Shown: piece by piece, positions 18,696 to 40,476 of the stretch
Layout of the letters: each line of letters opens with the position of its first letter
How positions within the stretch are numbered: position 1 is the stretch's first letter
The notes under the pieces: model-generated
Seen by the model: only the letters and a program-made list of their open reading frames with translations
Databases searched by the model: none
Told to the model about the DNA's origin: nothing
Origin: an uncultured Candidatus Rokubacteria bacterium
GTDB taxonomy: Bacteria; Methylomirabilota; Methylomirabilia; Rokubacteriales; DASRDR01
NCBI GenBank assembly: GCA_963708025.1
Contig: CAVPSB010000032.1
Coordinates: 32,001-96,000, forward strand
DNA length: 64,000 bases
Reading direction: 5' to 3'
Program-made: the position numbers and the translations under genes

Positions 18696-20301
18696 ATGGC
18701 CCGACCCACGCGAATCCTGATCCTCGGCGGCGGCTTCGGCGGGGTCTACACCGCCCTGTCCCTCGAGAAGCGGCTGGCGACCGAGCTGCGGCGCGGGACC
18801 GTCGAGCTCTCGCTCGTCAACCGGGACAACTACATGGTCTTCCAGCCCATGCTGCCCGAGGTGATCTCGGGGAGCATCGGCCTCCTGGACACGATCGCGC
18901 CGATCCGGCGGCTATGCCCGGGCACGAACCTCTACACTCGCGCGATCGAGCGGATCGACCTGGCGGGCCGGCGCGTGGTCACCGCCGCCGGGCTCGGCTC
19001 GCCGCCGTTCGACCTCGAGTACGACCACCTCGTCATCGCCCTCGGCACCGTCACCAGCTTCGCCGGCCAGCCCGGCCTCGCCGAGCACGCCCTGCCCTTC
19101 AAGTACCTCGGTGACGCGCTGGCCCTGCGGAACCGGCTCATCCACACCCTCGAGGAGGCGGACATCGAGCGCGATCCGGAGGTGCGCCGGGGCCTCGTCA
19201 CCTTCGTCGTCGCCGGTGGGGGCTTCTCCGGGGTCGAGGCGGTGGCCGAGGTGAACGACTTCGTCCGCGCCGTCGCGAAGAGCTTCCGGAACCTCGACCC
19301 CCGCGAGATCCGGGTCGTCCTGCTGCACGCCGGCGACCTCGTCCTGCCGGAGCTGCCGCGGTCGCTCGCCGAGTTCGCCCAGCGCTTGCTCGGGAAGCGG
19401 AACGTCGAGGTCCGCTTGCGGACGCGCCTGGCCGGCGCCACCGGCGACGCGGCGCTGCTCGAGGGCGGGGAGCGCATCCCGACCCGGACGGTGGTGAGCA
19501 CGGTGCCGTCGGCGCCGAACCCGCTGGTGGCGATGCTCCCCGTCAAGAAGGAGCGCGACCGGATCGTGGTCGACGGCCACCTGGCCGTGCCCGACTGGCC
19601 GGGCGTGTGGGCCCTCGGGGACTGCGCCTTCGTCGTCGACGGGAAGAGCGGCCAGCCCTGCCCGCCGACGGCCCAGCACGCCACGCGGCAGGCGACGTGC
19701 CTGGCCGGGAACCTGGTGGCCGCCCTGCGGGGCCAGGACCGGAAGGCCTTCGCGTTCACGGCGCTCGGCAAGATGGGCGCGCTGGGTCATCGCTCGGCGG
19801 TCGCCGAGATCCTCGGCCTCAGGGTCTCGGGCTTCCTGGCATGGTGGCTCTGGCGAACCATCTACCTGATGAAGCTCCCCGGGTTCGACCGGAAGCTCCG
19901 GGTCGCCACCGACTGGACCCTGGACCTGATCCTCCCACCCGACATCGTCCAGCTCAAGACCGAGAAGCCGCTCGCCATCCGCCGCGAGCACTTCGAGGCG
20001 AACGAGGTGATCTTCCGCGAGGGCGACCGGGGCGACTCGCTCTACATCGTGGTCGACGGCGAGGTCGAGGTGTCGCGGAGCGTTCCGGGCCAGGAGGCGG
20101 TGACGCTGGCGCGGCTGGGGCGCGGGGACTGCTTCGGCGAGATCGCGCTGGTCAAGGAGGCGACCGCGCTCGGCGACCGTCCGCACCTGCTCCCGCGTCA
20201 ACGTGCTGGTGATGGACCGCGAGGCCTTCCAGACGCTGTTCGCGCACCTGCCGCCGGTCCGCGGCTTCTTCGAGCGGCTCATCGAGCAGCGGACCCGGTA
20301 A
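18696..20301 (+). CDS. Type II NADH dehydrogenase-like flavoprotein fused to a cNMP-binding domain (frameshift near 20165)
   Basis: GGGFGG, GGGFSGVE, WALGD, PPTAQHA; then IFREGDRGDSLYIVVDGEV..FGEIAL and ATVRT..MDREAF in next frame. Confidence 0.88.
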
Positions 20302-20306
20302 CTCTT

Positions 20307-20343
20307 CGGGGGGGTCTCGGAAGACCCCCCCGATGCCCCCCCT
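20307..20343. repeat. G/C-run hairpin repeat (family 2), copy 3
   Basis: GGGGGGGTCTCGGAAGACCCCCCCGATGCCCCCC just after the stop at 20301. Confidence 0.85.
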
Positions 20344-20439
20344 CCGTTGCGGCGGCCGGGTACCCACGCCGGAGGCGCGTAGCGCCTCCGCGTGGGTGGC
20401 CGCTCGGGGTTACGCGGATGGAGCCTCGGGGCGGCGCCC

Positions 20440-20694
20440 TCAGCCCGAGCCGCAGCCGAGCTGCTCGAGCAGGAGGCGGCGGAGGCGCTCCTTCACCTCG
20501 TCCGGCATGGCCACGCGGCCGGCCGCGCCGGCCAGGTCCCGTGTCTTCCGGTACGTGTTCAGGTAGGCCAGGCACGCCGGGCAGTCCTGGAGGTGGCGCT
20601 CCAGGGCGGCGACGACCTCGTCGCCCAGCGCCGCCTCGAGGTAGTCGCCCATGATGGCGATCGCCTCCCGGCAGGTCAGCGGCCGCAGCTCCAT
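20440..20694 (-). CDS. zf-HC2 zinc-finger anti-sigma-like protein
   Basis: LTCRE..DYLE..ERHLQDCPAC (HxxxCxxC). Confidence 0.85.
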   Translation of the reverse strand: MELRPLTCREAIAIMGDYLEAALGDEVVAALERHLQDCPACLAYLNTYRKTRDLAGAAGRVAMPDEVKERLRRLLLEQLGCGSG

Positions 20695-22577: not shown

Positions 22578-22946
22578 CTCCAGGACCCGGTCGAGCCGGA
22601 GCACCAGCTCCAGCAGGACCCGCGTCCCGGCCGCCAGGTCGGCCGGCTCCGTCCACTCCTCCGGGCAGTGGCTGCAACCCTCGCGGCACGGCACGAAGAG
22701 CATGCCGATCGGGCCGAGGGTCGCCACGTGGTTCGCGTCGTGGCTGGCCCCGCTGATGACGCGGCGGTGCGCCACGCCGACCGCCTCCGCCGCCGTGGCC
22801 GCCTGCTCCACCATGTCCGGTCCGATCTCGAGCGGCGCGTCGCGCATCAGGGGGACCACCTCCACGGCGACGCCGCGCCGGGCCGCCACCTCGGCCGCCG
22901 CCGCCTCGAACCGGTCCACGGTCTCGACCACGGCCACGGCGATCAA
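22563..22946 (-). pseudogene. C-terminal fragment of M20 Zn-amidohydrolase (allantoate amidohydrolase-like)
   Basis: SGASHDA, GMLFVPC..G.SHCPEEW; N-terminal metal ligands missing, only 127 aa. Confidence 0.75.
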
Positions 22947-23926
22947 TCGGGCCGGGGGGGAGCTGCGCGCTCCTCCCCCGGACCCCCCCTCCGAGTGTCT
23001 CCTCGTTCAGGAATGCCCGGCGATTGCCTCGCCGCTTCTCCATCGCGCAGGACGGCGTCGGCCAGGCGGCCCGCCACGTCCTGGAGGGCGCGGCCCGTGA
23101 GGCTGTCCGCGTAATCGAGGACGAAGGGCCGGCCGCGATCGGCCCCGATCGCCAGGCGGGGGTCGAACGGCACCCGGCCGAGGAACGGGATCCCCAGCTC
23201 GGCGGCCGTGCGCTCCCCGCCGGGTCCGGCGTAGAGGGCCCCCATGGCCCCGCATTCGAGGCAGACGTAGGAGGCCATGTTCTCCACGAGCCCCAGCAGC
23301 CGGGCGTGCGCCTCGCGGGCCAGCGTGATCGACTTCTTCACGACCAGGTGGGAGACCTCGGAGGGAATCGTGACGACGACCGCGCCGGTGAGGTCGGGCA
23401 GCAGCCCGGCCACCGTCGGCAGCCGGTCGGCCCCGGGCGGGAGGTCGAGCAGCAGGAGGTCGAGCTCGCCCCACTCCGTGTCGGCCAGGAACTCGCGCAG
23501 CGCGTTCGCCTCCATCGTGCCGCGCCAGGTGTGAGCCTCCTCCTGGGTGGGCGCCGCCCAGACCACCGGTGTCTCGTCGGACGGGAGGAGGAGGTCCATC
23601 GAGAGGACACGGATCCCGCCGGCGGAGCGCGCCGGGGCGACGCCGGCCTCGCCGAGCCGGAGGGCCTGGCCGCGGACCCCGAGCATCTTGGCGATGGACG
23701 GCCCGTTGAGGTCGGCGTCCAGCACCCCCACCGCGTAGCCCTCGGCCGCCAGCGCCGCCGCCAGGTTCGCGGTGATCGAGCTCTTCCCCACCCCGCCCTT
23801 GCCGGAGACGACCGCGACCTTTCGGCGGATCCCGGCCATCCGCTGTCGCAGCCGCGCCTGCTGCTCGGCGATCTGGCCGACGATGTTCGATCCGCCATCG
23901 CCCGCGATGTCCTTGTAGCGCTTCAC
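22943..23926 (-). CDS. Mrp/NBP35 family P-loop ATPase
   Basis: SGKGGVGKS, DADLNGPS, WRG, DLPPG, GLVENM, CxxC (CLEC). Confidence 0.92.
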   Translation of the reverse strand: MKRYKDIAGDGGSNIVGQIAEQQARLRQRMAGIRRKVAVVSGKGGVGKSSITANLAAALAAEGYAVGVLDADLNGPSIAKMLGVRGQALRLGEAGVAPARSAGGIRVLSMDLLLPSDETPVVWAAPTQEEAHTWRGTMEANALREFLADTEWGELDLLLLDLPPGADRLPTVAGLLPDLTGAVVVTIPSEVSHLVVKKSITLAREAHARLLGLVENMASYVCLECGAMGALYAGPGGERTAAELGIPFLGRVPFDPRLAIGADRGRPFVLDYADSLTGRALQDVAGRLADAVLRDGEAARQSPGIPERGDTRRGGPGEERAAPPRPD

Positions 23927-24123
23927 TCTGGCTTCTTTCGATCAAGCCCTGCAGATCCAGGACCTGCTCGCAGGGGAATGGATTCCTTGGCGGACGGCGA
24001 CTTGAGTCCTCGCCTGACGATGCCGCGAACGATGTGCGCGGGGTCGGCTTCCGGGTGGCTGCGCTCGATCTTACGCACCCCACGGCGCCCACCCGTCATC
24101 TTCATGCGCCTGCTAGCTTTCAC
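23923..24123 (-). pseudogene. Possible decayed BrnA-like antitoxin
   Basis: HPEAD..HIVRGIVRRGLK..KESIPLR resembles the region before the BrnA I(S/T)LR motif; diverges afterwards. Confidence 0.4.
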
Positions 24124-24144
24124 GGTCGTGCCCGAGCGACGATC

Positions 24145-24654
24145 CTAGTGACTGTGGAGCCATTCTAGAACGCGCTCGGGGAACACGCCACGGCGCTGCT
24201 CCTCGGCCAGAAGATGGTCCAGCCCCGGGTCAAGCACGAAGCGGGGTGGAGTCGTCGGGCCGGTCAGCTGCAACGTTCCCGGGAGCCCCAGCGTTGGAGG
24301 ATACCCCTTGATGGTGTTGGCGACCCTGGCGGGAAACGGGGGCTCGGTGCCCTGGCGCGGATCGTCCCAGAGCTCAACAACTCGGTTCATGGTCGCCTCG
24401 TTAACCTCGACCCAGAGGCCCCAGCAACAGGCCTCGCGCTTCCCTCGCACCGGAATGGGAAGAAGAGCTCGCAGGAAGAACTGGCGGTGTGTGTCCGCCG
24501 CGTTGTGCACGATGCAGTCATCTGAGCCGGCAATCGTGCGATGGGCCCGCTCCTCGGGCGGCACAGCCAGATAGGCATCGGGCTTGCCGTATGTCGGCTC
24601 GAGCTCCGTCCAGTCGTGTTCGGCACCACAATTGGCGCAACGAAGTGGGGGCAC
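24145..24654 (-). CDS. DUF2199 family protein
   Basis: CANCGAEH start, SDDC, FLRALLPIPV..WGLWVEV, HLLAEEQRRG; more A/T-ending codons than neighbours. Confidence 0.75.
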   Translation of the reverse strand: MPPLRCANCGAEHDWTELEPTYGKPDAYLAVPPEERAHRTIAGSDDCIVHNAADTHRQFFLRALLPIPVRGKREACCWGLWVEVNEATMNRVVELWDDPRQGTEPPFPARVANTIKGYPPTLGLPGTLQLTGPTTPPRFVLDPGLDHLLAEEQRRGVFPERVLEWLHSH

Positions 24655-24704
24655 AGAGGTGTCTCCTGCCGTGCGCGGCTAGCGCCGAGAGTCTTCAGCG
24701 ATCA

Positions 24705-25709
24705 TTACGGGCCGGGCCCCTGGTCGGTCGTGTCGAGCGGGGCGGCGGCCGGGTCCTTGAGGTAGGTGCGGAAGCGCTGCATGAGATCGGGGCCGAGGAG
24801 GTCGCCGGAGGCGCCGTGGCGCTCGGTCTCGAAGTAGTGACGGATCGTGTCGAGCCGAGCCTGGGCCTCGGGATTGAGGCTGACCAGACGGATCCGGTCC
24901 TTGGCGGCGTCGAAGGCGTCGAAGGTCAGCTCGGTGAAGCCGAGCTCGCGGATCCGCCGGACGGCCTTCATCATCGCCTGGTTCCGGAACCGGGTCAGGA
25001 GCGGGGAGGTGATGACGGCCGCGCCCATTCGCCGCGCCCGGCGCTCGGCCGCCTTCCGGATCCCTTCCCGGACGAACTCGGGCGCGGTCTGGAGCCGCGC
25101 CCAGGCCTCGGGCGCCCACTCGACGGGCTCCTCGCCGCCGGTCGCCCACAGCTGCCGGAACACCTCGGGCGTGATCGTGGCCTCGCCGTGCCGCCGCGCC
25201 TCCACCTCGACGTCCCGCTTGAACAGCCGGAGGACGAAGTCGGCCATCATCGCCGGGGTCTTGCCGAGCCGCGCGACGAGGAGCGCCTCGGCCTCGTCCG
25301 TCCACGGCAGCGGCTCGGCCGCCCCCTCGATCTCGGCCAGCGCCTCGGCCTCCCGGATCAGCGTGGCGGTGACCCGCGGCGCGCGCTGCTCGGCGGCCAG
25401 CTCCTCGCAGATCCGGCGGGTCATCGGCCGCATGAACTCGGGGACGCCGGCCAGGAGCGCCTCGGCCTCCGCCGTCCACGGGGTGGCGGCCGCCGGGACG
25501 ATATAGGCGCCGCTGGCGGCGACGCCCATCATCTCCTGCTTGTACCGCGTCATCACCTCGGGGGTGATGACGGCGATCCCCTCGGCGCGCGCGCGCTTCT
25601 CGGCGAGGCGGCGGACCATGCCCCGGAGGAATACCGGCGCCCGCTGGAGTCGCGCCTCGGCCTCCGGGGTCCACGTCACCTCGCCGGGACCGGGCGCCGG
25701 CGCCGTCAC
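24705..25709 (-). CDS. Protein made of four PCP_red-like (BchB C-terminal) repeats
   Basis: Four W-x-x-EA...P-x-F/M...A...IT/VT units: WTPEAEARL, WTAEAEALL, WTDEAEALL, WAPEAWARL. Confidence 0.82.
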   Translation of the reverse strand: MTAPAPGPGEVTWTPEAEARLQRAPVFLRGMVRRLAEKRARAEGIAVITPEVMTRYKQEMMGVAASGAYIVPAAATPWTAEAEALLAGVPEFMRPMTRRICEELAAEQRAPRVTATLIREAEALAEIEGAAEPLPWTDEAEALLVARLGKTPAMMADFVLRLFKRDVEVEARRHGEATITPEVFRQLWATGGEEPVEWAPEAWARLQTAPEFVREGIRKAAERRARRMGAAVITSPLLTRFRNQAMMKAVRRIRELGFTELTFDAFDAAKDRIRLVSLNPEAQARLDTIRHYFETERHGASGDLLGPDLMQRFRTYLKDPAAAPLDTTDQGPGP

Positions 25710-26131
25710 GGATCGCGGCTCCAGGCGGCGCGGGCCAGGAGGATGGCGATCGCCAGCGTCATCAGCGAGAACGCCCAGGCCCCGAACCGGACCGGAAAGC
25801 CGAAGCCCGCCAGCGAGATCAGCTCCGGCTTCGGCCCGCGCCAGGCGATCCGAGCGACCTCGAGCGCCCGCCAGGCGAGGACCAGGGTGAGGATCCGGGC
25901 GAAGTCGCGCCGCGACAGCACCCAGCGATCGAACCACGGACGCTCGCGCCAGAGGAGCCACGGGATCACGAACACCAGAGCGCCCGACGCGACCAGGAGC
26001 AGCGCCACCACCCAGGCCGGCGGCCGGGGTCCCGCCCCCGCGGCCCGGAGGGCCAGCCCACCGAGCCAGTAGACGGTCCCGTACGCCGCGTAGCCCCCGG
26101 CGGCCTGGCGGAACTTCTCGTCGCGGTTCAT
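25706..26131 (-). CDS. Hypothetical membrane protein (about 4 TM)
   Basis: MNRDEKFRQAAGGYAAYG...; 4-nt overlaps with both neighbours. Confidence 0.75.
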   Translation of the reverse strand: MNRDEKFRQAAGGYAAYGTVYWLGGLALRAAGAGPRPPAWVVALLLVASGALVFVIPWLLWRERPWFDRWVLSRRDFARILTLVLAWRALEVARIAWRGPKPELISLAGFGFPVRFGAWAFSLMTLAIAILLARAAWSRDP

Positions 26132-27478
26132 CCGCGGCGCGGCGTGAAGGGCCGCTCGGGGTTGATGCCCCAGCGGCTCCGCACCTCGGCCATGAGGGCC
26201 GGGGTGATCGTCGGCCTGGCCCTGGCTCCGCGCGTACGCCTCCACCGCCTGCACCACCATGCCGCGCGCGAACGCCGGGATCGCGTCGAGTCGCGCCCGG
26301 GCCATCGGCTCCCAGGCCAGCGTCGTTCCGACCTCGAGGCCGAACGTCTGATCAGCGGGCAGGTCCAGCACCTCGGTCCCGTACCGGCCGGGCTCGTAGG
26401 CGCACGCCGGATCCTCGGCCAGGTAGTCGCCGAAGGTCGCGTAGGCCCGGCACCGGCAGCCCCCGCAGATCCGCTGGAACTCGCAGGCGCCGCAGCGTCC
26501 ACCGAGCTTCGGCTCCCGGAGGTCGCTGAACACCTGGCCCCGCTCCCACAGTTCGCCGAAGCCGACCTGCCGGAGGTTGCCGGCCGAAACCGGCATGTAG
26601 GGGCACGGCGTCACGTCGCCCTCGGGGGTGATCCGGCAGTAGTACTTCCCCGCCGGGCAGGAGCCGTGGGCGTAGTTGGCGAGGAGCGGCGAGTCGGGGT
26701 CGAGCTGGTACAGGATCCGGCGGAAGTGGGGGGCGCACTTGGCCCGGATCAGGAGGCCGCCGGCGCGTCCGGCCGGCACGCTCCAGGGATCCTCGAGGCC
26801 GTCGACCACCGACGGCCGCGCCGGGGCGCCGTCCCCGCCCACACCCTGGACGCGCGCCAGGTAGGTCAGGATCTCCTCGTACCGGTCGGGCGTGATGTCG
26901 GTGAGCGCCTCGCCCCGTCCGGTCCGGACCAGGAAGAAGAAGTTCAGGACCCGGGCCCCGAGCTCCCGGGCGAGGTCGATCATCGCCGGGATCTCACCCA
27001 CGTTCCAGTCGGTCACGCTCATGTGAAGCGAGAAGTCGAGCCCCTCGGCCCGGAGCGCCTCGGTCGCCCGGACGGCGCCCTGCCAGGCTCCCGGCAGGTG
27101 GCGGAAGCGGTCGTGGCGGGCCGGGTCGGTGGAGTCCAGGCTGAGGGAGGCACCCTGGACGCCGTGCTCGCGGAGGAGGCGCGCCTGCTTCTCGCGGAGG
27201 AGGACGCCGTTGGTGCCGACCACCACCGTGAAGCCGTGGTCCCGGCCGTGGGCGGCCAGGTCGTAGATGTCCCGGCGGATCAGCGGCTCGCCGCCGGTCA
27301 GGATGAGGAAGACGTTGGGGTTGACCCGGGCGATGTCCGCCATGACGCGGCGGCACTCCTCGGTGGACAGCTCGCCGGCCGCGTCCGCGTCCGGCGCCGC
27401 GCTCATGTAGCAGTGCGCGCAGAACAGGTTGCAGCGCCGGGTCAGGTTCCAGGAGACCGCGTAGGCCTTGTAGGACAC
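26128..27478 (-). CDS. Radical SAM/SPASM protein, AhbD/NirJ-like, with C-terminal PCP_red repeat (frameshift near 26215)
   Basis: CNLFCAHC, TGGEP, KCAPHF, SPASM CPAG..PCPY..CGAC..CGGCRCRA..DPAC; WEPMARARLDAIPAFARG tail. Confidence 0.88.
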
Positions 27479-27484
27479 TCGATC

Positions 27485-27579
27485 CTCCCCTCTCCTTTGC
27501 GGGCGGAGAGGGTCAGGGGAGGGGCTCGGCCAACGGCGGAGCCCTCACCCTTGCGCCCTCTCCCTAGGCGGGAGAGGGA
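27485..27579. repeat. REP-like purine/pyrimidine palindromic element
   Basis: CCCCTCTCC..GGAGAGGG..GGGGAGGGG..CCCTCACCC..CCCTCTCCC..GGGAGAGGG nested inverted repeats. Confidence 0.65.
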
Positions 27580-29480
27580 GTCGCGCCCTTCTTGTCGCGG
27601 ATGTAGCCGGCGATCACCTCATTCATCGTCGCGCGGGCGTGACCGATCCCCTCCTCGCAGACCGCCAGGTCGATCACGCCGAGCTGCTTCTCACGGGCGA
27701 CCTTCTCGATCGCCTCCCGCGTCAGGTCGCGCATGAAGCCGGCCGGCACCCGGTTGAGCCGCGCCACCGCGTCCTCGGTCCAGGTGAACTCGCCGGAGGG
27801 GGTCGCCACCTCCGCGAAGCTCGCCGGCTCGAACCGGGTGTTGGCGATGAGCGTGTCCCAGCCGGCGCCGAGCTTGTCCCGGCCGACGGTCTCCTCGATC
27901 AGCGGGAACGCCAGCTCCTTGGTGATGACCGGGATCTTCCGGGACCGGGCGTACTTCTCGATGCGCGCCTTGGCCCGCCGCCGCAGGTAGGCGTCCGTCA
28001 CCTCCCGGAGCCCCTCCCGGGCCTCGTTGGCCCACCGCACCGCGACCCCGGGCATCACCTCTTCCTCGGCCACGCCGCCCTCGGCCGTCGCGATCTGCTC
28101 GACGATCTGCCGGTCGATGATCGAGAACTTCTCGGGCCCGCCGCCGCAGACCGGACACTTCACCACCGGGTTCGGCCCCTTGACGGTGTACCCGCAGACC
28201 GAGCAGATCGCGGAGACCGCCGCCTCCTCGGCCCGGAGCTGGGCCACCGCCAGATCCTCGGCCAGGATCTGCATCTTCTCCGCCATCCGGCTCGGCATGA
28301 AGATCGCCATGGCCTCGTCGATGACCTTGGAGGTGATCACGGTGTGGCCCTGCTCGATGGCGTACCGGAGGAGGGCGGTGCGGGCGACTCCCGCCACCTG
28401 CTCGGGCACCCGCTTCATCCGCTCCTTCGCCTCGTCGGTCCAGGAGATGATCTCCTCGGCCTTGACGTCCAGCGGCGGGTAGAACTTCCCGGCAGTGAGG
28501 AGGACGTTGCACGGGGCCAGCCGCAGGAGGTTCTCGGTGTTCGAGCCCAGGTCCGTCTCGTTCTCGTCGGAGTGGACGCCCACCCGGCCGAGGATGAGGA
28601 GCCAGGGGTGCTCCTTCCGGCAGAACTGGAGGATCTTCTCGAAGCACTTCCCGTCGAGCAGCGTGATCGCCATGTCGACGCCGTCCTCGCGGGCGAGCTT
28701 CCGGCCAATCTCGAGGTGCGACTGGTAGATCTTGGCCAGCCCGGTGTCGATGATCTCCTCGTGGAGCTGCTCCTGCTCCTTGAAGCGGAAGACCTTCGAC
28801 GCCTTCTCGGAGAGGACGCCCACGATCCCGTTGAACATCGCGTAGTGGAGGTAGGGGTCGTAGACGGCCACCGCGTGGAGCGGCCGGCCGAGCGCCCGGG
28901 CCAGCGCGATGCCGAGCTTGAGGCCCTGGAACGACTGGGGACTCCCGTCCAGGCCCACCACGATGGCGCCCTGCTGGGCCTCGAGCGGCTCCAGGCTCCG
29001 GACCACCAGGGTGTCCACGGGCACCCGGCGGACGAAGCGCTCGGTGACCGAGCCGAGCTGGCTGTCCTTCACCGCCCCCAGTCCCAGCGCGCCGATGATC
29101 ACCAGGTCGGCGTCGCCGCCGCGGACGTCGTCGATCAGCGCCTTGTAGTGCTTGCCGTCCATCATCCGCCGCTCGAAGGCCAGCCCGGCCGCCTCGGACT
29201 TCCGCGCCATGACGTCGAGGTAGGAGTCGGAGATGAGCTGGAGGCCCATGGCGATGAGCGAGTCGTGGATCTTCCGCTGGCGCTCCAGCTCGGTCTCGTC
29301 CTTGTACTCGTCGGGCAGCGTGTACTCCATCTGCTTGAAGCGGTAGTCGTGAAGCCGCGCCGCGTAGACGTGGCAGCCGACCAGCGCGGAGCCGGAGGCC
29401 CGCCCGATCTCCACGGCCAGGTCGATGGCACGGTTCGAGTAGTCGGAGTTGTCGACGGGCACGTAGATCTTCCGGAACAT
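27564..29480 (-). CDS. Tandem universal stress protein fused to three PCP_red repeats and a rubredoxin-like domain
   Basis: KIYVPVDNS..GSVTERFVR and IVVGLDGS..GSNTENLLR USP domains; CSVCGY..CPVCG; WTDEA, WANEA, WTEDA repeats. Confidence 0.88.
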   Translation of the reverse strand: MFRKIYVPVDNSDYSNRAIDLAVEIGRASGSALVGCHVYAARLHDYRFKQMEYTLPDEYKDETELERQRKIHDSLIAMGLQLISDSYLDVMARKSEAAGLAFERRMMDGKHYKALIDDVRGGDADLVIIGALGLGAVKDSQLGSVTERFVRRVPVDTLVVRSLEPLEAQQGAIVVGLDGSPQSFQGLKLGIALARALGRPLHAVAVYDPYLHYAMFNGIVGVLSEKASKVFRFKEQEQLHEEIIDTGLAKIYQSHLEIGRKLAREDGVDMAITLLDGKCFEKILQFCRKEHPWLLILGRVGVHSDENETDLGSNTENLLRLAPCNVLLTAGKFYPPLDVKAEEIISWTDEAKERMKRVPEQVAGVARTALLRYAIEQGHTVITSKVIDEAMAIFMPSRMAEKMQILAEDLAVAQLRAEEAAVSAICSVCGYTVKGPNPVVKCPVCGGGPEKFSIIDRQIVEQIATAEGGVAEEEVMPGVAVRWANEAREGLREVTDAYLRRRAKARIEKYARSRKIPVITKELAFPLIEETVGRDKLGAGWDTLIANTRFEPASFAEVATPSGEFTWTEDAVARLNRVPAGFMRDLTREAIEKVAREKQLGVIDLAVCEEGIGHARATMNEVIAGYIRDKKGATPSPA

Positions 29481-29496: not shown

Positions 29497-30252
29497 TTAC
29501 TTGAGCTCAAAGTCCAGCGTCGCCTCGCCCTTCGGTGGGATCGTGATCTCCTGGGTCAGCAGTCGCGGCGGGTCGTGGAGGGGGCGACCATCCTTGTCCT
29601 TGCCCGTCACCACCCAGCCCTCGTGCCAGGCCACCACCCGGTAGCGGCCGGGCGGGATCTCGCCGATCCGGAACCGACCCTCGTCGTCGGTGACGGCGAA
29701 GTAGGGGTTGTCGCGCACGACGATCCAGGCCCGCATGTGGGTGTGGGCGTCGCACTGGACGTCGATCACCCCCGGCTTCTTGATCCGCTGGGTGATGTCC
29801 ACCACCTGGTCCTTGTTCGGGAGCGCCACGTTGAACACGGTGACCCGGTCGAGGAAGCCGTGGGTGTTGTGCAGGATCGGGTCGCCGTTCTTGATCCGGA
29901 CCCGGGCGCCGGCCATCACCGCCGACACGTGGGGCACGAAGAGGCACTTGGCGTTGTCCAGCTCGAAGTCGGCCGGCTTCTTGCCCCGCTCCACACCCTC
30001 CAGGTAGACCACCGTGTTCCGCACGCCCTTGTTCGGCCCGACCACCAGGGCCTGGAAGGGCTTGGTGTCCCCGCAGACGTCGGTGTTCTTCCGGACCGGA
30101 AGGGGCTCCCCCTTGACCGACTCGCCGGCGAATCGCACGCGCCCCACCAGCGCGCCGCCATCGGCCACCGGCGCCTCGACGTAGGCCCCGGCCGGAACCG
30201 GCGTGATGGCCGCGAGCCAGACCGCGGTGACGACGAGCGACCGGAGCTTCAC
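29497..30252 (-). CDS. Exported carboxypeptidase-regulatory-like/cupredoxin-like protein
   Basis: Signal peptide; C.F.PHV, NGDPILHNTH, CDAHTHM, PPGRYRVVAWHE. Confidence 0.8.
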   Translation of the reverse strand: MKLRSLVVTAVWLAAITPVPAGAYVEAPVADGGALVGRVRFAGESVKGEPLPVRKNTDVCGDTKPFQALVVGPNKGVRNTVVYLEGVERGKKPADFELDNAKCLFVPHVSAVMAGARVRIKNGDPILHNTHGFLDRVTVFNVALPNKDQVVDITQRIKKPGVIDVQCDAHTHMRAWIVVRDNPYFAVTDDEGRFRIGEIPPGRYRVVAWHEGWVVTGKDKDGRPLHDPPRLLTQEITIPPKGEATLDFELK

Positions 30253-30638
30253 CCGACTTCGTCCCTTCCGGGCCCCGGCCGAGTGTCGACCGGATCCACC
30301 AGGTAGTCGAGGCTGAGCCAGAGGCTCTTGCTGTAGCGGAAGAACCACAGGGGGAACGTGACGGCGAAGGTGCCCCACACGAGGAGCTGGAGGCCGACCG
30401 AGAGGCCCAGCGCCGCATCGAGCGCGAAGTACCCGGCGATCGAGATCAGCGTGGTCGCTCCGTAATTCAGGTAGATCGCCCCGACGAAGTAGCCGGGCTC
30501 GCGCTCGAAGACGAGCCCGCAGGCCGGACAGCGCTCGTGCATCCGGAACGGCCCGGCGAACACCGCCCCCGCCCCGCAGCGGGGGCAGAGGAGACGGAGC
30601 CCGCGCCCCATGACCCGCCGCAGCCGAGCCCAGCCCAC
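30249..30638 (-). CDS. DUF983 family membrane protein
   Basis: CPRCG..CPACG..EREPGYFVGA plus two TM segments. Confidence 0.82.
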   Translation of the reverse strand: MGWARLRRVMGRGLRLLCPRCGAGAVFAGPFRMHERCPACGLVFEREPGYFVGAIYLNYGATTLISIAGYFALDAALGLSVGLQLLVWGTFAVTFPLWFFRYSKSLWLSLDYLVDPVDTRPGPGRDEVG

Positions 30639-30665
30639 GTCCCCGTCACGTCGCGCCGGGACCCG

Positions 30666-30986
30666 TCAGTGCTTGGGGGCTTCGACCTTGACGGTGTCGG
30701 CCGTCCGGTGGTCCACCGCCCGGTTGTCGGGCAGCAGCACCAGCAGGAGCAGCGTCCCGATGGCCAGCGGGGTGAGCGCGATGTACGCGAGCGTGCGGGT
30801 CTCGAAGCGGAGGTGCATGAAGTACATCGCCACCAGTGCCGCCTTGGTCACCGCCAGCGCCACCAGCAGGGTGCCGACGACCACCTTGTTGAAGCCGGGG
30901 AGGATCACGGCGATCTCGACCACGGTGAGCGCGGCCAGCCACCAGAAGATCGCCATGTAGTTCGTCTTGTGCTCAGTGTCGGCCAC
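30666..30986 (-). CDS. Cytochrome c oxidase subunit IV
   Basis: LTVVE..KAALVAMYFMHLRFE. Confidence 0.9.
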   Translation of the reverse strand: MADTEHKTNYMAIFWWLAALTVVEIAVILPGFNKVVVGTLLVALAVTKAALVAMYFMHLRFETRTLAYIALTPLAIGTLLLLVLLPDNRAVDHRTADTVKVEAPKH

Positions 30987-31001
30987 GGCTGCCTCCCGCC
31001 C

Positions 31002-31619
<618 letters not shown>

Positions 31620-31640
31620 GATCGCTCTCCTTGTGGGTGA

Positions 31641-32315
31641 TCATGCGAGATAGACGAGCAGGTACAGGATCGGCCACAGGGCGACCACGAAGTGCCAGTA
31701 CATCGCGCAGACGGCCACCCCCACGTGGTCCCGGGCCGCGTAGCGCCCGCGGGTCGCGGCCCACGTCACCAGCGTCAGCCAGACGAGCGCCACCAGGACG
31801 TGGACCCCGTGGGCACCGATCAGCGTGTAGAAGGTGGCGCCGTAGGCCCCGGAGGACGCCGTCAGGCCGAAGCCGATCAGCCGGATCCACTCGGCCCCCT
31901 GGACCGCGAGGAAGAGCGCGCCGAGGCCGGCCGTCCGGACGAGCTCGGTGACCAGGCGGCGGCGGTCGTCCCGGCGCACGGCGCGAAGCGCGCGGGTCAG
32001 CGTGTAGCTCGACAGGAGCAGCACCAGCGTGTTGATCGCGGTGGCGGCGACCGGCAGCCGTGGCTGGGCCGGGGGGGGCCACACGGCCGCGCTCAGGCGC
32101 AGCACGAGGAAGGCGCCGACCAGCGCGCCGAAGAACATCGTCTCGGTGGCGAGCAGCATCCACATCCCGAGCCGCGCGTTCGAGACGGGTGGCCAGGAAC
32201 CCCGCCCTTCGCCGCCGTCGCCCGTGTCCGGCGGCGCCGGCGGCAGCCAGCCGACCGCCGACCCCGGTCCGCCCGGGCCCTCGGCCCTGAGGTCCGGCTC
32301 TTCCAGCCGGCTCAT
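31641..32315 (-). CDS. Cytochrome c oxidase subunit III (first copy)
   Basis: LGMWMLLATETMFF, GAHGVHV, YWHFV. Confidence 0.92.
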   Translation of the reverse strand: MSRLEEPDLRAEGPGGPGSAVGWLPPAPPDTGDGGEGRGSWPPVSNARLGMWMLLATETMFFGALVGAFLVLRLSAAVWPPPAQPRLPVAATAINTLVLLLSSYTLTRALRAVRRDDRRRLVTELVRTAGLGALFLAVQGAEWIRLIGFGLTASSGAYGATFYTLIGAHGVHVLVALVWLTLVTWAATRGRYAARDHVGVAVCAMYWHFVVALWPILYLLVYLA

Positions 32316-32449
32316 CAGTTACGGACCCAGATGACCGCGATCGACACGGCCACGAGGAAGGCGATCCAGGCGACGAGCCACCAGGCCGTGCGGCGGTTCC
32401 GCGCCGCCAGCGCCCGCTCCTCAACATGCCGCTCCAGCACTCCCGCCAC
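32315..32449 (-). CDS. Small single-TM protein (44 aa), below ORF-track cutoff
   Basis: GTG start after GAGG; VAGVLERHVEERALAARNRRTAWWLVAWIAFLVAVSIAVIWVRN; TGATG overlap with coxIII. Confidence 0.65.
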   Translation of the reverse strand: MAGVLERHVEERALAARNRRTAWWLVAWIAFLVAVSIAVIWVRN

Positions 32450-32501
32450 CGCCTAGCTTCCTCGAAGCGCCGAACCCATGGCAGATGAGTCGAACTCCCG
32501 G

Positions 32502-32700
32502 GCGCCGGGCCGAGGAGCGAGCAGCGCCCACAGGCCGAAGGCCGTCCAATGGACGCAGGGAGTCGCCGACCGCAGGCGTATGCCGCATACGCCGAGGATG
32601 GGCGACGACCGAGGACGACCATAGGTCGGGACGGACGCGAGGCCGCAGGCCGAGCGCGTCACGACCGAGATCGAAGTTGCGACGCTCATCGGCCCCGCCC
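32502..32700 (+). repeat. Family 1 repeat, copy B
   Basis: GGGCCGAGGAGCG...CGCTCATCGGCCC ends; GGCGTATG-CCG-CATACGCC hairpin. Confidence 0.9.
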
Positions 32701-32701
32701 C

Positions 32702-33682
32702 CTACGCCTTGTCCAGCGCCATGAGGATCAGCAAGAGCGGCAGGTAGGCCACCGAGGCCAGCAGCAGCCGCCGGGCCGACGCCGGGGAGGGCGTGAGCGC
32801 CTGGGCCAGCCCGCACGCCAGGAACGCCGCGCCGAGCACGAAGGCGCCAGCGAAGTACACGGGACCCGCCAGCCCGATCAGCGTCGGCAGGAGTCCCACC
32901 GCCAGCAGGGCCAGACAGCCGGCCACGATCTGTCGCTCGGTGCTGGCACCGTCCGGATCGACGACGGGCAGGACCCGGATCCCGGCCTGCGCGTAATCGT
33001 CGCGATAGAGACGGGCGATGGCGAGCGTGTGCGGGAGCTGCCACAGGAACAGGATGGCGAACAGCACGGCCGCGCCCACGCCGACCTCGCCCCGGGCCGC
33101 CACCCACCCCGTCACCGGCGGGAGCGCTCCCGGAACCGCACCGATCACCATGGCCAGCGGGGTCACCAGCTTGAGCGGCGTGTAGGCGAACAGGTAGAGG
33201 ATCACCGTGGACCCGGTCACAGCCCCGGTCGGAAAATCCACCGCGAGGACAAGATAGGCCAGCCCGGCGGCGGTGGTGGCCGCGCCGAAGACGAGCGCCT
33301 CCACGGCGCCCAGGCGGCCGTCGGGGAGCGGGCGGCCGCGCGTGCGCCGCATCCGGCCGTCCACCTCGCGCTCGAGGAACTGATTGAGGGCGAGGGTCCC
33401 CCCCGCCGCCAGCGCCGTCCCGATCAGGACGTGGACGAGGCGGAGGTAGTCCGGGGCCCCGGTCGAGCCGACGTAGAAGCCGACGCACGTCGTCACCAGC
33501 ACCATGACGACCACGCGCGGCTTCGTGAGCGAGAGGAAGTCGAGCAGCCGCTGGCGCTCGGCCACCAGCGCGACCCTCGCCGGGGCCCCCGACGGCGCCG
33601 GCCGGGCCGGGGACAGCGGCGCCAGCGGCGGCGGGCCCGGCACCGGCGCGGCCTGCTCCAGGGTCGGGGTCCGCGAGATCAT
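32702..33682 (-). CDS. ctaB: Protoheme IX farnesyltransferase (heme o synthase)
   Basis: LTKPRV, D.RM.RT..RPLP.G, YTPLK, GAVPGALPP, FLWQLPH. Confidence 0.95.
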   Translation of the reverse strand: MISRTPTLEQAAPVPGPPPLAPLSPARPAPSGAPARVALVAERQRLLDFLSLTKPRVVVMVLVTTCVGFYVGSTGAPDYLRLVHVLIGTALAAGGTLALNQFLEREVDGRMRRTRGRPLPDGRLGAVEALVFGAATTAAGLAYLVLAVDFPTGAVTGSTVILYLFAYTPLKLVTPLAMVIGAVPGALPPVTGWVAARGEVGVGAAVLFAILFLWQLPHTLAIARLYRDDYAQAGIRVLPVVDPDGASTERQIVAGCLALLAVGLLPTLIGLAGPVYFAGAFVLGAAFLACGLAQALTPSPASARRLLLASVAYLPLLLILMALDKA

Positions 33683-34635
33683 GCCGGCACCCGGCGGGCC
33701 CGAAGCGGCGTCGCGGCACCCGACGGCTCCTCGGCGGGGAGGCCACGGAGCCGCCAGGCGCCGAGGGTCAGCGTGATCGCGGCGCCCAGAAGCAGCGCGG
33801 CCGTGAGGCGGTGGGCGACCGGCAACGCCAGCCCCGTCAGCCCGCCACCCGGCAGGGCCAAGCCCGTGAAGCGGGCGACGTACGCGCCGAGTCCGAGCGC
33901 GATCTGGAGGGCCAGGAGGGCGCCGAGGGCTCGGGCGGGCCGGGCCAGCGCCCCGGGGCTCTCGGGCCAGGCGAGGACGCGGAACGCCGCGGCGCCGGAA
34001 AGGAGGGCCGCCGGCAGCGCCCCGGCCAGGTGGAGGCTCACCCAACCGGCGTGGGTCGTGAGCGCGCCGAGGACGATCTGGAGGTACAGCATCGCGGTCG
34101 CCACCACCCCCAGCCAGGCGAGGCCGCGCCCCTGGTCGGCGTGAAGCGACGGCGCCGGGGCCGTCCACCCCGGCGACGTGACGACCGCCAGCGTCACCGT
34201 GAGCGCGAAGAACGCCTGGGCCAGGCAGCCGTGGACGATGGCCAAGGCGTCACGCAGCCACAGCACCCGCAAGCCGCCCAGGAGGCCCTGAGTGGAGACC
34301 AGGACGACCGCCAGCAGGCCGAAGCCGCGCAGCCAGCCCCGGCGCTCGGTCAGCCACAAGGTCGCCCCAAGCCCGAGGGTCAGGAGTCCTACCAGCGCCC
34401 CGAGGAGCCGGTGGCTGTGCTCGTAGAAGACCCCGCCCACCATCCGGGACCAGGGATAGAGGAACATGTTGTGGCCGAACGTCGTCGGCCAGTCGGGGAC
34501 GGCCAGCGCCGCGCCGGTGTTGGTCACCAGCCCGCCGGCGACGATGAGCACCAGCGTCGCCCCCGCGGTGACGAGCGCCAGCCCATGCGCCCAGCGGAGC
34601 GGGCCGATGCCCGTCGCCCCGGGTCGTCCGTTCAT
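33679..34635 (-). CDS. ctaA: Heme A synthase (COX15/CtaA family)
   Basis: GGLVT..PDWP, EHSHR, QGLLGGL..H, second-half His residues. Confidence 0.9.
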   Translation of the reverse strand: MNGRPGATGIGPLRWAHGLALVTAGATLVLIVAGGLVTNTGAALAVPDWPTTFGHNMFLYPWSRMVGGVFYEHSHRLLGALVGLLTLGLGATLWLTERRGWLRGFGLLAVVLVSTQGLLGGLRVLWLRDALAIVHGCLAQAFFALTVTLAVVTSPGWTAPAPSLHADQGRGLAWLGVVATAMLYLQIVLGALTTHAGWVSLHLAGALPAALLSGAAAFRVLAWPESPGALARPARALGALLALQIALGLGAYVARFTGLALPGGGLTGLALPVAHRLTAALLLGAAITLTLGAWRLRGLPAEEPSGAATPLRARRVPA

Positions 34636-34699
34636 CCCGTCCGGGCCGCGGACGTCCCGGCCTCTGGGGTCGTCGGCGGGCCTCCCAGCAGCGAGCGAC

Positions 34700-34805
34700 G
34701 TCCCGAGGGCCGCAGGACCGAGGCGTCGCGACCAGATGGTCAATGGCGGCATACGCCTCGGCCCGCCTCCTCCCTGCGTCCTACCGGGGCTCGGGCCTCG
34801 CCCCG
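34700..34805 (-). repeat. Family 1 repeat, partial copy in opposite orientation
   Basis: Reverse complement GGACGCAGGGAGGAGGCG..GCGTATGCCGC matches copy D around 54053-54090. Confidence 0.65.
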
Positions 34806-34831
34806 CTCCGCGCTTGCCGCACTCCCCATCG

Positions 34832-36589
34832 TCAGTGAGACCGGGACGAGCCGGCCTTGGCCAACCGCCGGTCCTGGGGCAGCCAGTCCTCGCTCACCTC
34901 GGGCGAGCTGTACTCGTAGGGGCCGCGATAGACCACGGGCAGCGTGGCGCCCCAGTTCCCATGGGGCGGCGGCGAGGGGGCGGTCCACTCCAGCGTGTTC
35001 GCCTGCCAGGGGTTGACGGGCGCCTTGGCCCCGCCGAACAGGCTCGCGATGAAGTTGATGATGAACGGGATCTGGAACAGTCCGAGCGCGAACACGCTCA
35101 GGCTGATGACGACGTTCCAGGGCTCCGTCCACTTCAGGAAGTCGTACTGGAGCGGGTTGTAGATCCGGCGCATGTGACCGCCCACCCCGATGATGTGCAT
35201 CGGGAAGAAGGCGGCGTTGAAGAACACGAACGTCCCCCAGAAGTGGATCTTGCCGAGGGTGTCGTTCATCAGGCGCCCGAACATCTTGGGGAACCAGTAG
35301 TAGATCCCGGCGAAGGCGCCGAAGATCGAGCCGCCGAAGACGACGTAGTGGATGTGGGCGACAATGAAGTAGGTGTCCTGGATGAAGATGTCGACCGGCG
35401 TGGAGGCCATGAAGATCCCCGACAGCCCGCCGATCACGAACATCGAGACGAAGGCCAGCGCGTTGAGCATGGGGACCGTGAACCGGATGTTCCCGCCCCA
35501 CAGGGTCCCCAGCCAGTTGAACGTCTTGATGGCCGAGGGCACCGCGATCACCATGGTGGTGATCATGAACGAGGTCCCCAGCGCCGGGTTCATCCCGCTG
35601 ACGAACATGTGGTGGCCGTACACGATCCAGGACAGGAACGCGATCCCGATCATCGAGAACGCCATCGCCCGGTAACCGAAAATGGGCTTGCGGGAGAACA
35701 CCGACAGCACGTCGGAGGCGATGCCCATGGCGGGCAGGATCAGGATGTAGACCTCCGGGTGGCCGAAGAACCAGAAGAGGTGCTGCCAGAGCAGCGGCTC
35801 GCCGCCGCCGGTCGGCGCGAACCAGTGGGTCCCCAGCGTCCGATCGAACAGCAGCATCGCCACCGCCGAGGTCAGCACGGGCAAGGCCAGCAGCAGGAGA
35901 ATGGCGGTGACGAACATGGCCCAGATCACCAGCGGCATCCGGAACAGCGTCATGCCGGGGGCGCGCATGTTGACGATCGTCGTGATGTAGTTGATGGAGC
36001 CCATCATCGACGAGACGCCGAGGACGAACAGGCTCATGCACCAGAGGTTCTGGCCCCAGTTGACCCCCGAGTACGAGGGGACCGCCGAGAGCGGCGCGTA
36101 GGAAGTCCAGCCGGCGGCGGCGTGGCCGCCCTCGACGAAGAAGCCGGCCAGCATGAGCACGCCGGCGATGAAGCCGGCCCAGAACGAGAGCATGTTGAGC
36201 TTGGGGAACGCCATGTCGCGCGCCCCGATCATCAGCGGGATCAGGAAGTTGCCGAACGAGCCGGCCAGGATCGGCATGATCACGAAGAAGATCATGATGG
36301 TCGCGTGCATCGTGAACATCATGTTGTAGACGGCCGGGGAGATGACGCCCTCGTTGTCCGGCCAGAAGAACCGCCCGACGCCGGGGACCGGGGTCTCCGG
36401 CCACGCCAGCTGCCAGCGCATGAAGATCGCCAGGCCGCCCCCGATCAGCATCATGAACAGCCCGAGGAAGAGGAACTGCCGGGCGATCATCTTGTGGTCG
36501 GTGGAGAAGATGTAGGTCCGCACGAAGCCCAGCTCGTGGTGAGCGTGGAGGTCGTGGGCCGTTGCCGTCGCCGTGCTCGGATGCGCCAT
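34832..36589 (-). CDS. ctaD: Cytochrome c oxidase subunit I, A1-type
   Basis: TDHK, TMHA, GWTSY, WFFGHPEVYILILP, GHHMF, AHIHYV, MRR. Confidence 0.97.
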   Translation of the reverse strand: MAHPSTATATAHDLHAHHELGFVRTYIFSTDHKMIARQFLFLGLFMMLIGGGLAIFMRWQLAWPETPVPGVGRFFWPDNEGVISPAVYNMMFTMHATIMIFFVIMPILAGSFGNFLIPLMIGARDMAFPKLNMLSFWAGFIAGVLMLAGFFVEGGHAAAGWTSYAPLSAVPSYSGVNWGQNLWCMSLFVLGVSSMMGSINYITTIVNMRAPGMTLFRMPLVIWAMFVTAILLLLALPVLTSAVAMLLFDRTLGTHWFAPTGGGEPLLWQHLFWFFGHPEVYILILPAMGIASDVLSVFSRKPIFGYRAMAFSMIGIAFLSWIVYGHHMFVSGMNPALGTSFMITTMVIAVPSAIKTFNWLGTLWGGNIRFTVPMLNALAFVSMFVIGGLSGIFMASTPVDIFIQDTYFIVAHIHYVVFGGSIFGAFAGIYYWFPKMFGRLMNDTLGKIHFWGTFVFFNAAFFPMHIIGVGGHMRRIYNPLQYDFLKWTEPWNVVISLSVFALGLFQIPFIINFIASLFGGAKAPVNPWQANTLEWTAPSPPPHGNWGATLPVVYRGPYEYSSPEVSEDWLPQDRRLAKAGSSRSH

Positions 36590-36623
36590 CGTCGGTGATC
36601 TCCTCGGGTTCGGTGCCGCCGCG

Positions 36624-38166: not shown

Positions 38167-38204
38167 ACCGCGTTGTCCTCCTTGCTGGACGGATCGATCG
38201 GATT

Positions 38205-40472: not shown

Positions 40473-40476
40473 CGCG

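Follow-up and report, generated by a model that had tools for sequence, protein, structure and literature searches.

A PCP_red-bearing radical SAM and universal stress protein module associated with a cytochrome bd-like complex in Rokubacteria and other phyla

Which cellular process is served by a gene run that places eight copies of one small domain on three different proteins, and to which of the heme proteins encoded nearby does it belong? The question is raised by a stretch of 64,000 nucleotides from an uncultured Candidatus Rokubacteria bacterium (assembly GCA_963708025.1, contig CAVPSB010000032.1, positions 32,001 to 96,000; hereafter the window, with coordinates counted from its first letter), in which a protein with tandem universal stress protein (USP) domains, a radical SAM enzyme with a SPASM domain and a stand-alone four-repeat protein all carry PCP_red, the domain found at the C-terminus of the BchB/ChlB subunit of dark-operative protochlorophyllide reductase (DPOR). 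A preliminary description of this DNA, made from its letters alone, had proposed a dedicated machine for tetrapyrrole modification or cofactor insertion that serves the heme proteins encoded upstream. The observations presented here point to a cytoplasmic maturation or cofactor-supply module for a bd-like complex encoded further upstream, probably acting on an iron tetrapyrrole, a reading that is given about an even chance of being correct. The domain content, translational coupling, adjacency across phyla and co-occurrence beneath it are direct observations; what the module acts on, which of its parts touch and what each of them does are proposed from them.

Since the window is approximately 71% G+C, raw open reading frame (ORF) lists are full of false frames, and genes were picked with a frame plot of third-position G+C (GC3); domains were assigned to the window's proteins by Pfam and NCBIfam profile searches with curated cut-offs. 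ORF list and frame plot place all module genes on the minus strand, in a single co-oriented run. Pfam recovers in it the eight PCP_red units counted by the preliminary description (three in the USP protein, one in the radical SAM enzyme and four in the stand-alone protein), and the small membrane protein and Mrp-type ATPase that it had placed in the same run are indeed encoded there. The repeats are true PCP_red domains (PF08369), as had been suspected: they reach the gathering threshold of 32.5 bits (profile length, 45 positions) and directly match, in phmmer searches, the solved BchB domain 2KRU and residues 460-507 of ChlB (2XDQ chain B). Structurally, units of the four-repeat protein match the stand-alone Nostoc protein asr4154 (2L09; Z 8.4) and 2KRU (Z 7.9), followed by lid domains of AAA+ proteins (Z 5-7), matches which may reflect a common helical arrangement only. 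Within this shared Pfam family, the module units differ from DPOR in lacking the nitrogenase-like catalytic domain, in occurring in up to four repeats, and in being fused to USP or radical SAM domains. The DPOR_BchB profiles yield 57.7-105 bits against cut-offs of 490-509, over only their last ~55 positions; full-length BchB (TIGR01278, cut-off 490 bits) gives 57.7 and 89.3 bits, over profile positions 456-511. A PF08369 scan of the whole 8.17-Mb genome found no BchB-type protein; it returned seven units of the module and only one other, on contig C18, so that the clustering of PCP_red at this locus is far above chance.

The distribution of the module bears on which heme proteins it accompanies. 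What the preliminary description took for one oxidase operon upstream is in fact two minus-strand gene groups: an aa3-type cytochrome c oxidase (cox) operon (30249-37280; COX2, COX1, CtaA, CtaB, two COX3 genes, COX4 and DUF983, by Pfam) and, beyond it, a cluster encoding a CydA-like protein, a cytochrome c and a cytochrome c/EB_dh protein (38205-43218). Two sets of loci were compared with the window: the best 80 of 537 related loci, labelled almost entirely Rokubacteria/Methylomirabilota, and 80 loci from a scan seeded with distant members of the USP family, labelled Nitrospirota, Nitrospinota, Manganitrophaceae, SAR324, Fibrobacteria, Latescibacterota, Rhodocyclales and Burkholderiales. The expectation that the genes recur together elsewhere was borne out, as the USP gene and the gene for the PCP_red-bearing radical SAM enzyme are adjacent in Rokubacteria (69 of 80 loci), in Manganitrophaceae-like loci (all seven), in other Nitrospirota (43 of 51) and in all 12 loci of other phyla, which comprise SAR324, Fibrobacteria, Latescibacterota, Rhodocyclales/Rhodocyclaceae, Burkholderiales, Pseudomonadota and one unlabelled metagenome-assembled genome (MAG); the pair is adjacent in none of the 10 Nitrospinota loci. 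Adjacency thus spans Rokubacteria, Nitrospirota, SAR324, Fibrobacteria, Latescibacterota and Betaproteobacteria. In 10 of the 12 loci of other phyla, the pair directly follows genes for the CydA-like protein, a cytochrome c and the cytochrome c/EB_dh protein, the two remaining contigs ending inside cytochrome genes, and none of the 12 has a cox operon. Rokubacteria loci are ordered cox operon, periplasmic protein, USP, radical SAM, membrane protein, Mrp, and only in Rokubacteria does the aa3 cox operon lie between the bd-like cluster and the module. COX1 is found in 56 of the 80 Rokubacteria loci and within 10 kb in none of the 80 loci outside Rokubacteria, which separates the module from the adjacent aa3 oxidase. 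The proposal that it serves upstream heme proteins is therefore supported for the bd-like complex and not for the adjoining oxidase: the real partner of the module is the CydA-like/cytochrome c/EB_dh cluster.

The co-occurrence with the CydA-like gene that the preliminary description had suggested looking for proved very strong in the genome tables of three groups. Among 151 genomes of the window's own phylum, 89 (four unpublished genomes among them) carry both a USP family member and the CydA-like gene, 7 the former only, 6 the latter only and 49 neither; the corresponding numbers for 151 Nitrospirota genomes are 52, 3, 1 and 95. The most telling evidence is the patchy case of a betaproteobacterial order, where five of 201 genomes have both, 196 have neither and none has one without the other. 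These five carriers encode the USP and CydA-like proteins on the same contig, 0.5-8 kb apart, with two copies of each in one genome, and the pattern is not explained by aerobic life, since COX1 is present in 197 of the 201 genomes. CydA-like homologs, with 45-56% identity, were also found in all five module-bearing genomes of other phyla.

The CydA-like, or cytochrome bd-like, membrane protein (41344-43218) matches Cyt_bd_oxida_I with 32.2 bits (Pfam cut-off 26.2). It is followed by a di-heme cytochrome c (40477-41340; two stretches of Cytochrom_C), which is kept beside the CydA-like gene in other phyla, and by a protein with three cytochrome c domains and an EB_dh heme-b domain (38205-40472), which resembles the gamma subunits of type II DMSO reductases and 'alternative NxrC' and scores 112.7 bits for TIGR03477, under the cut-off of 169.85. 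The same order of genes is seen in SAR324, Fibrobacteria, Latescibacterota and one Nitrospirota genome. Domain matches and gene context thus display the characters of the OR-N type of the bd superfamily: Cyt_bd_oxida_I, a separate cytochrome c partner and an operon with alternative electron donors, here cytochromes c and EB_dh. In composition, the window's genes from 37462 to 43218 equal a cluster described, in the available portions of papers on N. moscoviensis and Nitrospina gracilis, as containing a 14-helix bd-like protein without a quinol site, mono- and di-heme cytochromes c, 'alternative NxrC', cupredoxin-like proteins and a zinc-finger protein; no NXR is encoded in the window, unlike in the nitrite oxidizers. 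According to the same portions, the cluster is conserved in Nitrospira, Nitrospina and anammox bacteria and highly transcribed in Nitrospira, its role is called undetermined or 'enigmatic', and one bd-like paralog is proposed as the terminal oxidase of the most widespread nitrite oxidizers; the parts seen of a preprint on the bd superfamily place such proteins in the OR-N family. Neither radical SAM enzymes nor USPs are mentioned in the sections available of the N. moscoviensis, Nitrospina gracilis and bd-superfamily texts, and a literature search returned no paper linking the bd-like complex with a radical SAM enzyme.

In a module that serves a bd-like complex, the chemistry would fall to the radical SAM enzyme (26128-27478; Pfam Radical_SAM, SPASM and one PCP_red). 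Its motif CX3CX2C (C16, C20, C23) and eight further cysteines are invariant among 52 homologs, so that both the radical SAM signature and the auxiliary-cluster cysteines of AhbD-type enzymes are present; two profile-matched stretches are split by one that matches no profile. The best NCBIfam matches are AhbD (TIGR04545, 302.6 bits against a cut-off of 500; E 4e-90) and NirJ2 (TIGR04055, 294/500), followed by TIGR04053 (253/395), NirJ (TIGR04051, 190.9/515) and AhbC (179/650). AhbD, NirJ2, NirJ and AhbC act on iron tetrapyrroles, and the TIGR04053 family is uncharacterised. The window's enzyme shares with these proteins CX3CX2C and a SPASM domain with two auxiliary-cluster cysteine sets; it differs by its scores below all cut-offs, by its C-terminal PCP_red, by its genomic partners, which are the USP protein and the bd-like complex rather than ahbABC or nir genes, and by its presence also in genomes with a HemN/HemF route. 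It is therefore not an ordinary AhbD, which would have undone the original proposal, and it is tightly linked to the USP/PCP_red genes. No protein of the window's genome reached the AhbD equivalog cut-off of 500 bits in the profile search. The same genome encodes a second AhbD-like radical SAM enzyme, without PCP_red (contig C2, 281851-282927; locus L169), which is a true member of TIGR04053 (437 bits against 395). Around it lie genes for a PAS-LuxR regulator, Hsp20, a PFOR fragment, a DHOD-like protein and two tandem USPs, so that USPs accompany an AhbD-like enzyme at a second place in the genome. At loci L119 and L096 (Nitrospirales, Nitrospina), the USP gene has genes for S-adenosylmethionine synthetase and/or S-adenosylhomocysteine hydrolase no more than a few kb away.

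The radical SAM gene is interrupted as assembled. Its ORF (25706-27478, 590 aa) runs on into the frame of the membrane protein, as one extra base at ~26213/26214 shifts the frame inside the PCP_red unit (26216-26314 and onward), whose last third (...TITPALMAEVRSRWG...) lies, with the stop codon, in another frame; the unit therefore scores 32.5 bits, exactly the cut-off, over profile positions 1-33 of 45 only, against 43-55 bits in intact homologs. The base is missing from three close homologs in a DNA alignment and from contigs of two public sequencing runs that are ~95-96% alike, and another long-read MAG (locus L004) has a different frameshift in the same gene, so that the insertion is read as an assembly error or a very recent mutation, the former being probable. 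A genuine radical SAM-membrane protein fusion of 590 aa was rejected because homologs and public-run contigs lack the base, and long ORFs at other loci arose by extension past stop codons, by frameshifts or by masked bases (L004, L027). With the base removed, the stop codon TGA of the radical SAM gene overlaps the ATG of the membrane protein gene (26131) as ATGA, by which the two genes are translationally coupled. None of the public sequencing runs closely matches the window's strain (no run holds half of the sampled words); an RNA-library run yielded contigs with 90-95% similarity to the USP gene and to a portion of the radical SAM gene, a resemblance that shows neither this organism nor transcription.

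The link to tetrapyrroles does not depend on the radical SAM enzyme alone. Chlor_dismutase proteins comprise heme enzymes and coproheme decarboxylases, and PCP_red is fused to the N-terminus of members of this family in Leptospirillum-type bacteria (four of four genomes, 35 of 36 homologs). PCP_red thus sits on three unrelated tetrapyrrole enzyme families: BchB, AhbD/NirJ-like radical SAM enzymes and Chlor_dismutase proteins. The Leptospirillum-type fusions (loci L175-L178; P0271-P0305) are annotated at source only as 'chlorite dismutase family protein'. In Nitrospirales, which have at least 12 PCP_red matches per genome, a 165-aa protein with two PCP_red units is encoded beside the CydA-like gene, adjoining DUF420 and methyltransferase genes; at loci L173 and L172 (genomes G001 and G081), the CydA-like genes are paired and accompanied by an O-methyltransferase, DUF420, two FGE-sulfatase-like proteins and a small PCP_red protein. 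The tetrapyrrole connection of the preliminary description has therefore been strengthened independently by a second kind of fusion; that a tetrapyrrole is acted on at all, and which one, is what we infer from these sequences.

Host heme synthesis helps to decide whether this tetrapyrrole could simply be an intermediate of heme b. The window's genome has hemE-hemH-hemY and a weak Chlor_dismutase-like protein, and profile searches found in it neither HemF nor a true HemN; genomes of Nitrospirales (G001) and Manganitrophus (G003) have a Chlor_dismutase protein of the size of ChdC, and all three are of the hemE-hemH-hemY/ChdC type. Genomes of SAR324, Rhodocyclales and Fibrobacteria (G002, G004, G005), which all carry the module beside the CydA-like gene, encode a true HemN (449-596 bits; one also HemF), and searches gave no Chlor_dismutase match in them. 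As carriers include HemN-type and ChdC-type genomes alike, the module is not simply part of main-pathway heme b synthesis. It has nonetheless to be considered whether the radical SAM enzyme could do the job of AhbD, as an oxygen-independent coproheme decarboxylase that supplies heme b at low oxygen, with the USP protein as a hypoxia regulator and the respiratory genes as neighbours by co-regulation only. AhbD is indeed the best family match; the heme genes of the window's genome, with only a weak Chlor_dismutase-like protein, would leave room for such an activity; Chlor_dismutase, the other family with coproheme decarboxylases among its members, also has PCP_red fusions; the second, TIGR04053-type enzyme of the genome stands among USPs and Hsp20; and USPs rise at low oxygen in Nitrospira marina, where the accessible part of the paper mentions them only as low-oxygen-induced proteins near operons. 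This explanation is nevertheless judged unlikely, as the enzyme falls far short of the AhbD cut-off, as coproheme is not expected as an intermediate in the three carriers with true HemN and no Chlor_dismutase match, and as the betaproteobacterial genes occur only in the five of 201 genomes that have the CydA-like gene, where a general hypoxic heme supply would predict otherwise. Literature on AhbD together with universal stress proteins consisted, by title and abstract, of unrelated papers only.

The presence of a SPASM domain calls for a different alternative, in which the enzyme would be a maturase of proteins or peptides. Its target would be either one of the bd-like complex subunits or the PCP_red repeats, where the Trp residue that an alignment shows to be invariant in the repeated units is one conceivable site, and PCP_red would be its recognition element. 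The eight conserved cysteines of the SPASM domain, the identity of the closest solved structure by sequence (PqqE) and the occurrence of the Trp-containing unit on the enzyme itself are all compatible with it. Its scores, conversely, place the enzyme with tetrapyrrole families (E 1e-90 to 1e-53), far above peptide maturases (1e-43 or weaker), the USP/radical SAM pair has no conserved small ORF as its companion across phyla, and PCP_red is also present on BchB and Chlor_dismutase-family proteins, none of which is, to our knowledge, modified. A maturase of this kind is thus regarded as quite unlikely.

The gene that precedes the radical SAM gene encodes the USP-PCP_red protein (27564-29480, from a probable ATG start; the open frame, of 648 aa, reaches a TTG at 29510). 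Two USP domains (PF00582, 128.4 bits against a cut-off of 24; E 3.8e-37) are followed by a PCP_red unit (~28311-28442), a rubredoxin-like Cys4 knuckle (residues 436-462, ~28125-28205) and two further PCP_red units (27912-28034 and 27651-27782), the three units together scoring 80.8 bits. As read from the translation, domain 1 (GALGLGAVKDSQLGS) contains exactly G-x2-G-x9-G-S, an instance of G-x2-G-x9-G-(S/T), which we take to be the nucleotide motif of ATP-binding USPs, and domain 2 has the pattern G-x2-G-x10-GS. In an AlphaFold2 model (mean predicted local distance difference test, pLDDT, 80.5), both USP domains contain a long helical insertion (H62-97 and H233-265), and flexible linkers connect PCP_red units of three helices. 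In Foldseek, the protein comes closest to the tandem USPs TTHA0350, with ATP, and Rv2623 (E 2e-16, TM to target 0.81), with which it shares the tandem fold and the presumed nucleotide motif of domain 1, and from which it differs by the helical insertions and by a 300-residue tail of PCP_red units with the Cys4 knuckle. Identity across Rokubacteria is 77-92%, and 351 relatives were found at E<=1e-30 among 1.8 billion cluster representatives.

These nearest structures, being regulatory USPs such as Rv2623, evoke the possibility that the USP protein is a mere nucleotide-sensing regulator of the bd-like complex and that the radical SAM, PCP_red and Mrp genes are unrelated housekeeping genes; some Nitrospirota lineages do have a PCP_red-free tandem USP beside the CydA-like cluster. 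In the minimal form of this arrangement (genome G148: CydA-like protein, 171-aa protein, cytochrome c, cytochrome c/EB_dh, tandem USP without PCP_red), however, the USP gene is still followed by the gene for a PCP_red-bearing radical SAM enzyme. In addition, all 20 sampled representatives of the USP family combine two USP domains with one to six PCP_red units, and genes of the run are translationally coupled, so that a purely regulatory role is very unlikely.

The Mrp/NUBPL-type P-loop ATPase (22943-23926; PF10609, 249.6 bits) has the deviant Walker A motif GKGGVGKS and a CxxC (CLEC), in common with the iron-sulfur cluster carriers Mrp/ApbC/NBP35, including MrpORP; it differs from MrpORP and ApbC in its scores below the equivalog cut-offs (MrpORP, NF041136, 253/450; ApbC 181/348), in having a second paralog in its genome, and in its closeness to Mrp proteins linked to PCP_red in Nitrospirales. 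A homolog is encoded in 61 of the 80 Rokubacteria loci; outside Rokubacteria, none of the 80 loci has an Mrp gene at 10 kb or less from the USP/radical SAM pair. The idea that the link is confined to Rokubacteria was dropped when Mrp and PCP_red genes were found as neighbours in Nitrospirales, where a Zn-ribbon protein with two PCP_red units directly follows the Mrp gene in 12 of 15 genomes. These Mrp proteins are 45-50% identical to that of the window, as compared to only 38.7% for the second Mrp of the window's own genome, which ties a specialised Mrp to PCP_red proteins in two phyla, in support of the preliminary description. The Nitrospirales Zn-ribbon protein is a homolog of the protein that carries the only PCP_red unit outside the window's module in this genome (contig C18, 266537-267106; locus L081), which has 189 aa, a Zn-ribbon, a GCPF motif and one PCP_red, stands in an unrelated neighbourhood, and is possibly the same as the 'zinc finger' protein that nxr clusters are reported to contain.

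Such neighbourhoods could also mean that PCP_red is a docking domain for dimeric ATPases of the Mrp/NifH class, which would deliver electrons or clusters in an ATP-driven manner, by analogy with BchL and BchNB. The Mrp subfamily that adjoins PCP_red proteins in two phyla is distinct from the second Mrp of the genome, and PCP_red belongs to BchB, whose partner BchL is described in the available part of a review as a P-loop ATPase. The absence of Mrp within 10 kb of the pair at the 80 loci outside Rokubacteria, its absence from the 3 kb examined around the PCP_red-Chlor_dismutase genes of Leptospirillum, and the fact that no contact of the C-terminal domain of BchB with BchL was found in the portions seen of the DPOR literature all argue against docking of this kind, which is considered highly improbable. 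The analogy between BchL and Mrp drawn in the preliminary description is only a lead.

Taken as a maturation or cofactor-supply module for the bd-like complex, the gene run suggests the following division of labour. The radical SAM/SPASM enzyme, with one SAM cluster and two auxiliary [4Fe-4S] clusters, would perform radical side-chain chemistry on an iron tetrapyrrole for the complex; the specialised Mrp ATPase would supply iron-sulfur clusters to this enzyme; PCP_red units on the enzyme, the USP protein and stand-alone proteins would hold the parts together or pass the tetrapyrrole on; and the tandem ATP-type USP domains, with the Cys4 knuckle, could couple the process to the nucleotide or redox state. 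A more specific version, which is offered tentatively and considered possible rather than probable, holds that the enzyme makes an as yet undescribed modified heme that is the working cofactor of bd-like (OR-N) complexes, and that PCP_red is a general domain for handing off tetrapyrroles, common to DPOR, radical SAM and chlorite-dismutase-family proteins and served by a dedicated Mrp.

Several observations weigh against a maturation module of this kind. An alignment of PCP_red reveals no conserved His or Cys by which heme could be ligated, and its fold resembles common small helical 'lid' domains, at only middling Z; SPASM enzymes often modify peptides; and the assembly has a frameshift in the window's radical SAM gene. 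With regard to genomic context, the USP gene adjoins the CydA-like gene in none of 68 Nitrospirales/Nitrospinota loci, standing with the radical SAM gene in Nitrospirales, and in Nitrospinota the PCP_red-bearing radical SAM enzyme is encoded elsewhere in the genome in all five cases checked. The co-occurrence tables overstate independence because the compared genomes are kin, and the Nitrospirota split may largely follow class boundaries. A role of PCP_red in DPOR was not found stated in the portions seen of the DPOR literature, among which a cryo-EM paper treats the upstream trans helix (residues 398-420) and not the PCP_red domain. A literature search on PCP_red/PF08369 gave nothing relevant, and, among the matches listed for Nitrospira or bd-like proteins together with protochlorophyllide reductase, no paper mentions this reductase. 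A predicted complex of the radical SAM enzyme with the last 304 residues of the USP protein (both from locus L012, with alignments) scored 0.00, which is evidence neither way.

The module would belong with the known heme-type radical SAM maturation systems. From a conserved accessory set that contains such an enzyme, a special cofactor or a step of maturation can be predicted for the bd-like complex, and the genes named here are candidates for co-expression in its heterologous production. The bd-like system is extended to non-nitrifying Rokubacteria, SAR324, Fibrobacteria, Latescibacterota and Betaproteobacteria, the orphan PCP_red domain gains a testable role outside photosynthesis, and an experimental route is opened into an unexplained respiratory complex of environmentally dominant bacteria.

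The remaining genes of the run are of narrower distribution. The 141-aa membrane protein (25706-26131) matches no Pfam or NCBIfam family; its nearest Atlas clusters are hypothetical proteins of Methylomirabilota/Rokubacteria, lineage-specific and below 0.9, and membrane proteins encoded downstream in Nitrospirota are not alignable to it (19-20% identity); it is specific to Rokubacteria. The four-repeat protein (24705-25709, 334 aa; ORF 24705-25961) most likely starts at a GTG at 25709 that overlaps the stop codon of the membrane protein gene as GTGA. It contains four PCP_red units (141.3 bits; ~25542-25673, 25347-25478, 25151-25304, a variant with an insertion, and 24990-25118) and a conserved C-terminal helical part. 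In an AlphaFold2 model (pLDDT 63.9, pTM 0.33), the units are folded and arranged as beads on a string, the inter-domain arrangement being unreliable. The gene was found only in the closest 13 Rokubacteria loci, and its product is 44-45% identical, over the full length, to Manganitrophaceae-like homologs. The radical SAM enzymes of Manganitrophaceae-like loci (L106, L111, L112, L120, L122, L125, L155) are likewise close, with 60-65% identity to those of the window's family, as against ~45% for that of Nitrospira, which hints at block transfer between lineages. Between the four-repeat and Mrp genes lies a DUF2199 gene (24145-24654; Pfam, E 8e-32) with weak third-position G+C bias; tblastn found no match to it in any of the 80 related Rokubacteria loci, which suggests that it was inserted recently.

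The cox operon lies between genes for two paralogous periplasmic proteins. That upstream of it (37462-38343) has a CarboxypepD_reg-like C-terminal domain by Pfam, and the second (29497-30378), directly upstream of the USP gene, matches the same family with 31.9 bits, just below the cut-off of 32.3; in other phyla, a homolog is encoded between the cytochrome c/EB_dh and radical SAM genes or just downstream. This layout suggests that an ancestral bd-like cluster received the cox operon by insertion, with duplication of the periplasmic gene. The translation of 29497-30378 contains a C-x2-H-x-H-M motif, suggestive of a copper site, and the available part of the Nitrospina genome paper reports cupredoxin-like proteins in the homologous cluster.

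Further downstream of the module, 22581-22934 (minus strand) encodes the last 118 residues of an M20 peptidase, a deletion remnant, relatives having a 446-aa M20 peptidase gene between those for Mrp and a thiamine pyrophosphate enzyme. On the plus strand, 18696-20654 joins a start resembling NADH dehydrogenase type 2 to a cyclic-nucleotide-binding part, followed by low-complexity Pro/Arg/Gly sequence, and may represent another assembly frameshift.

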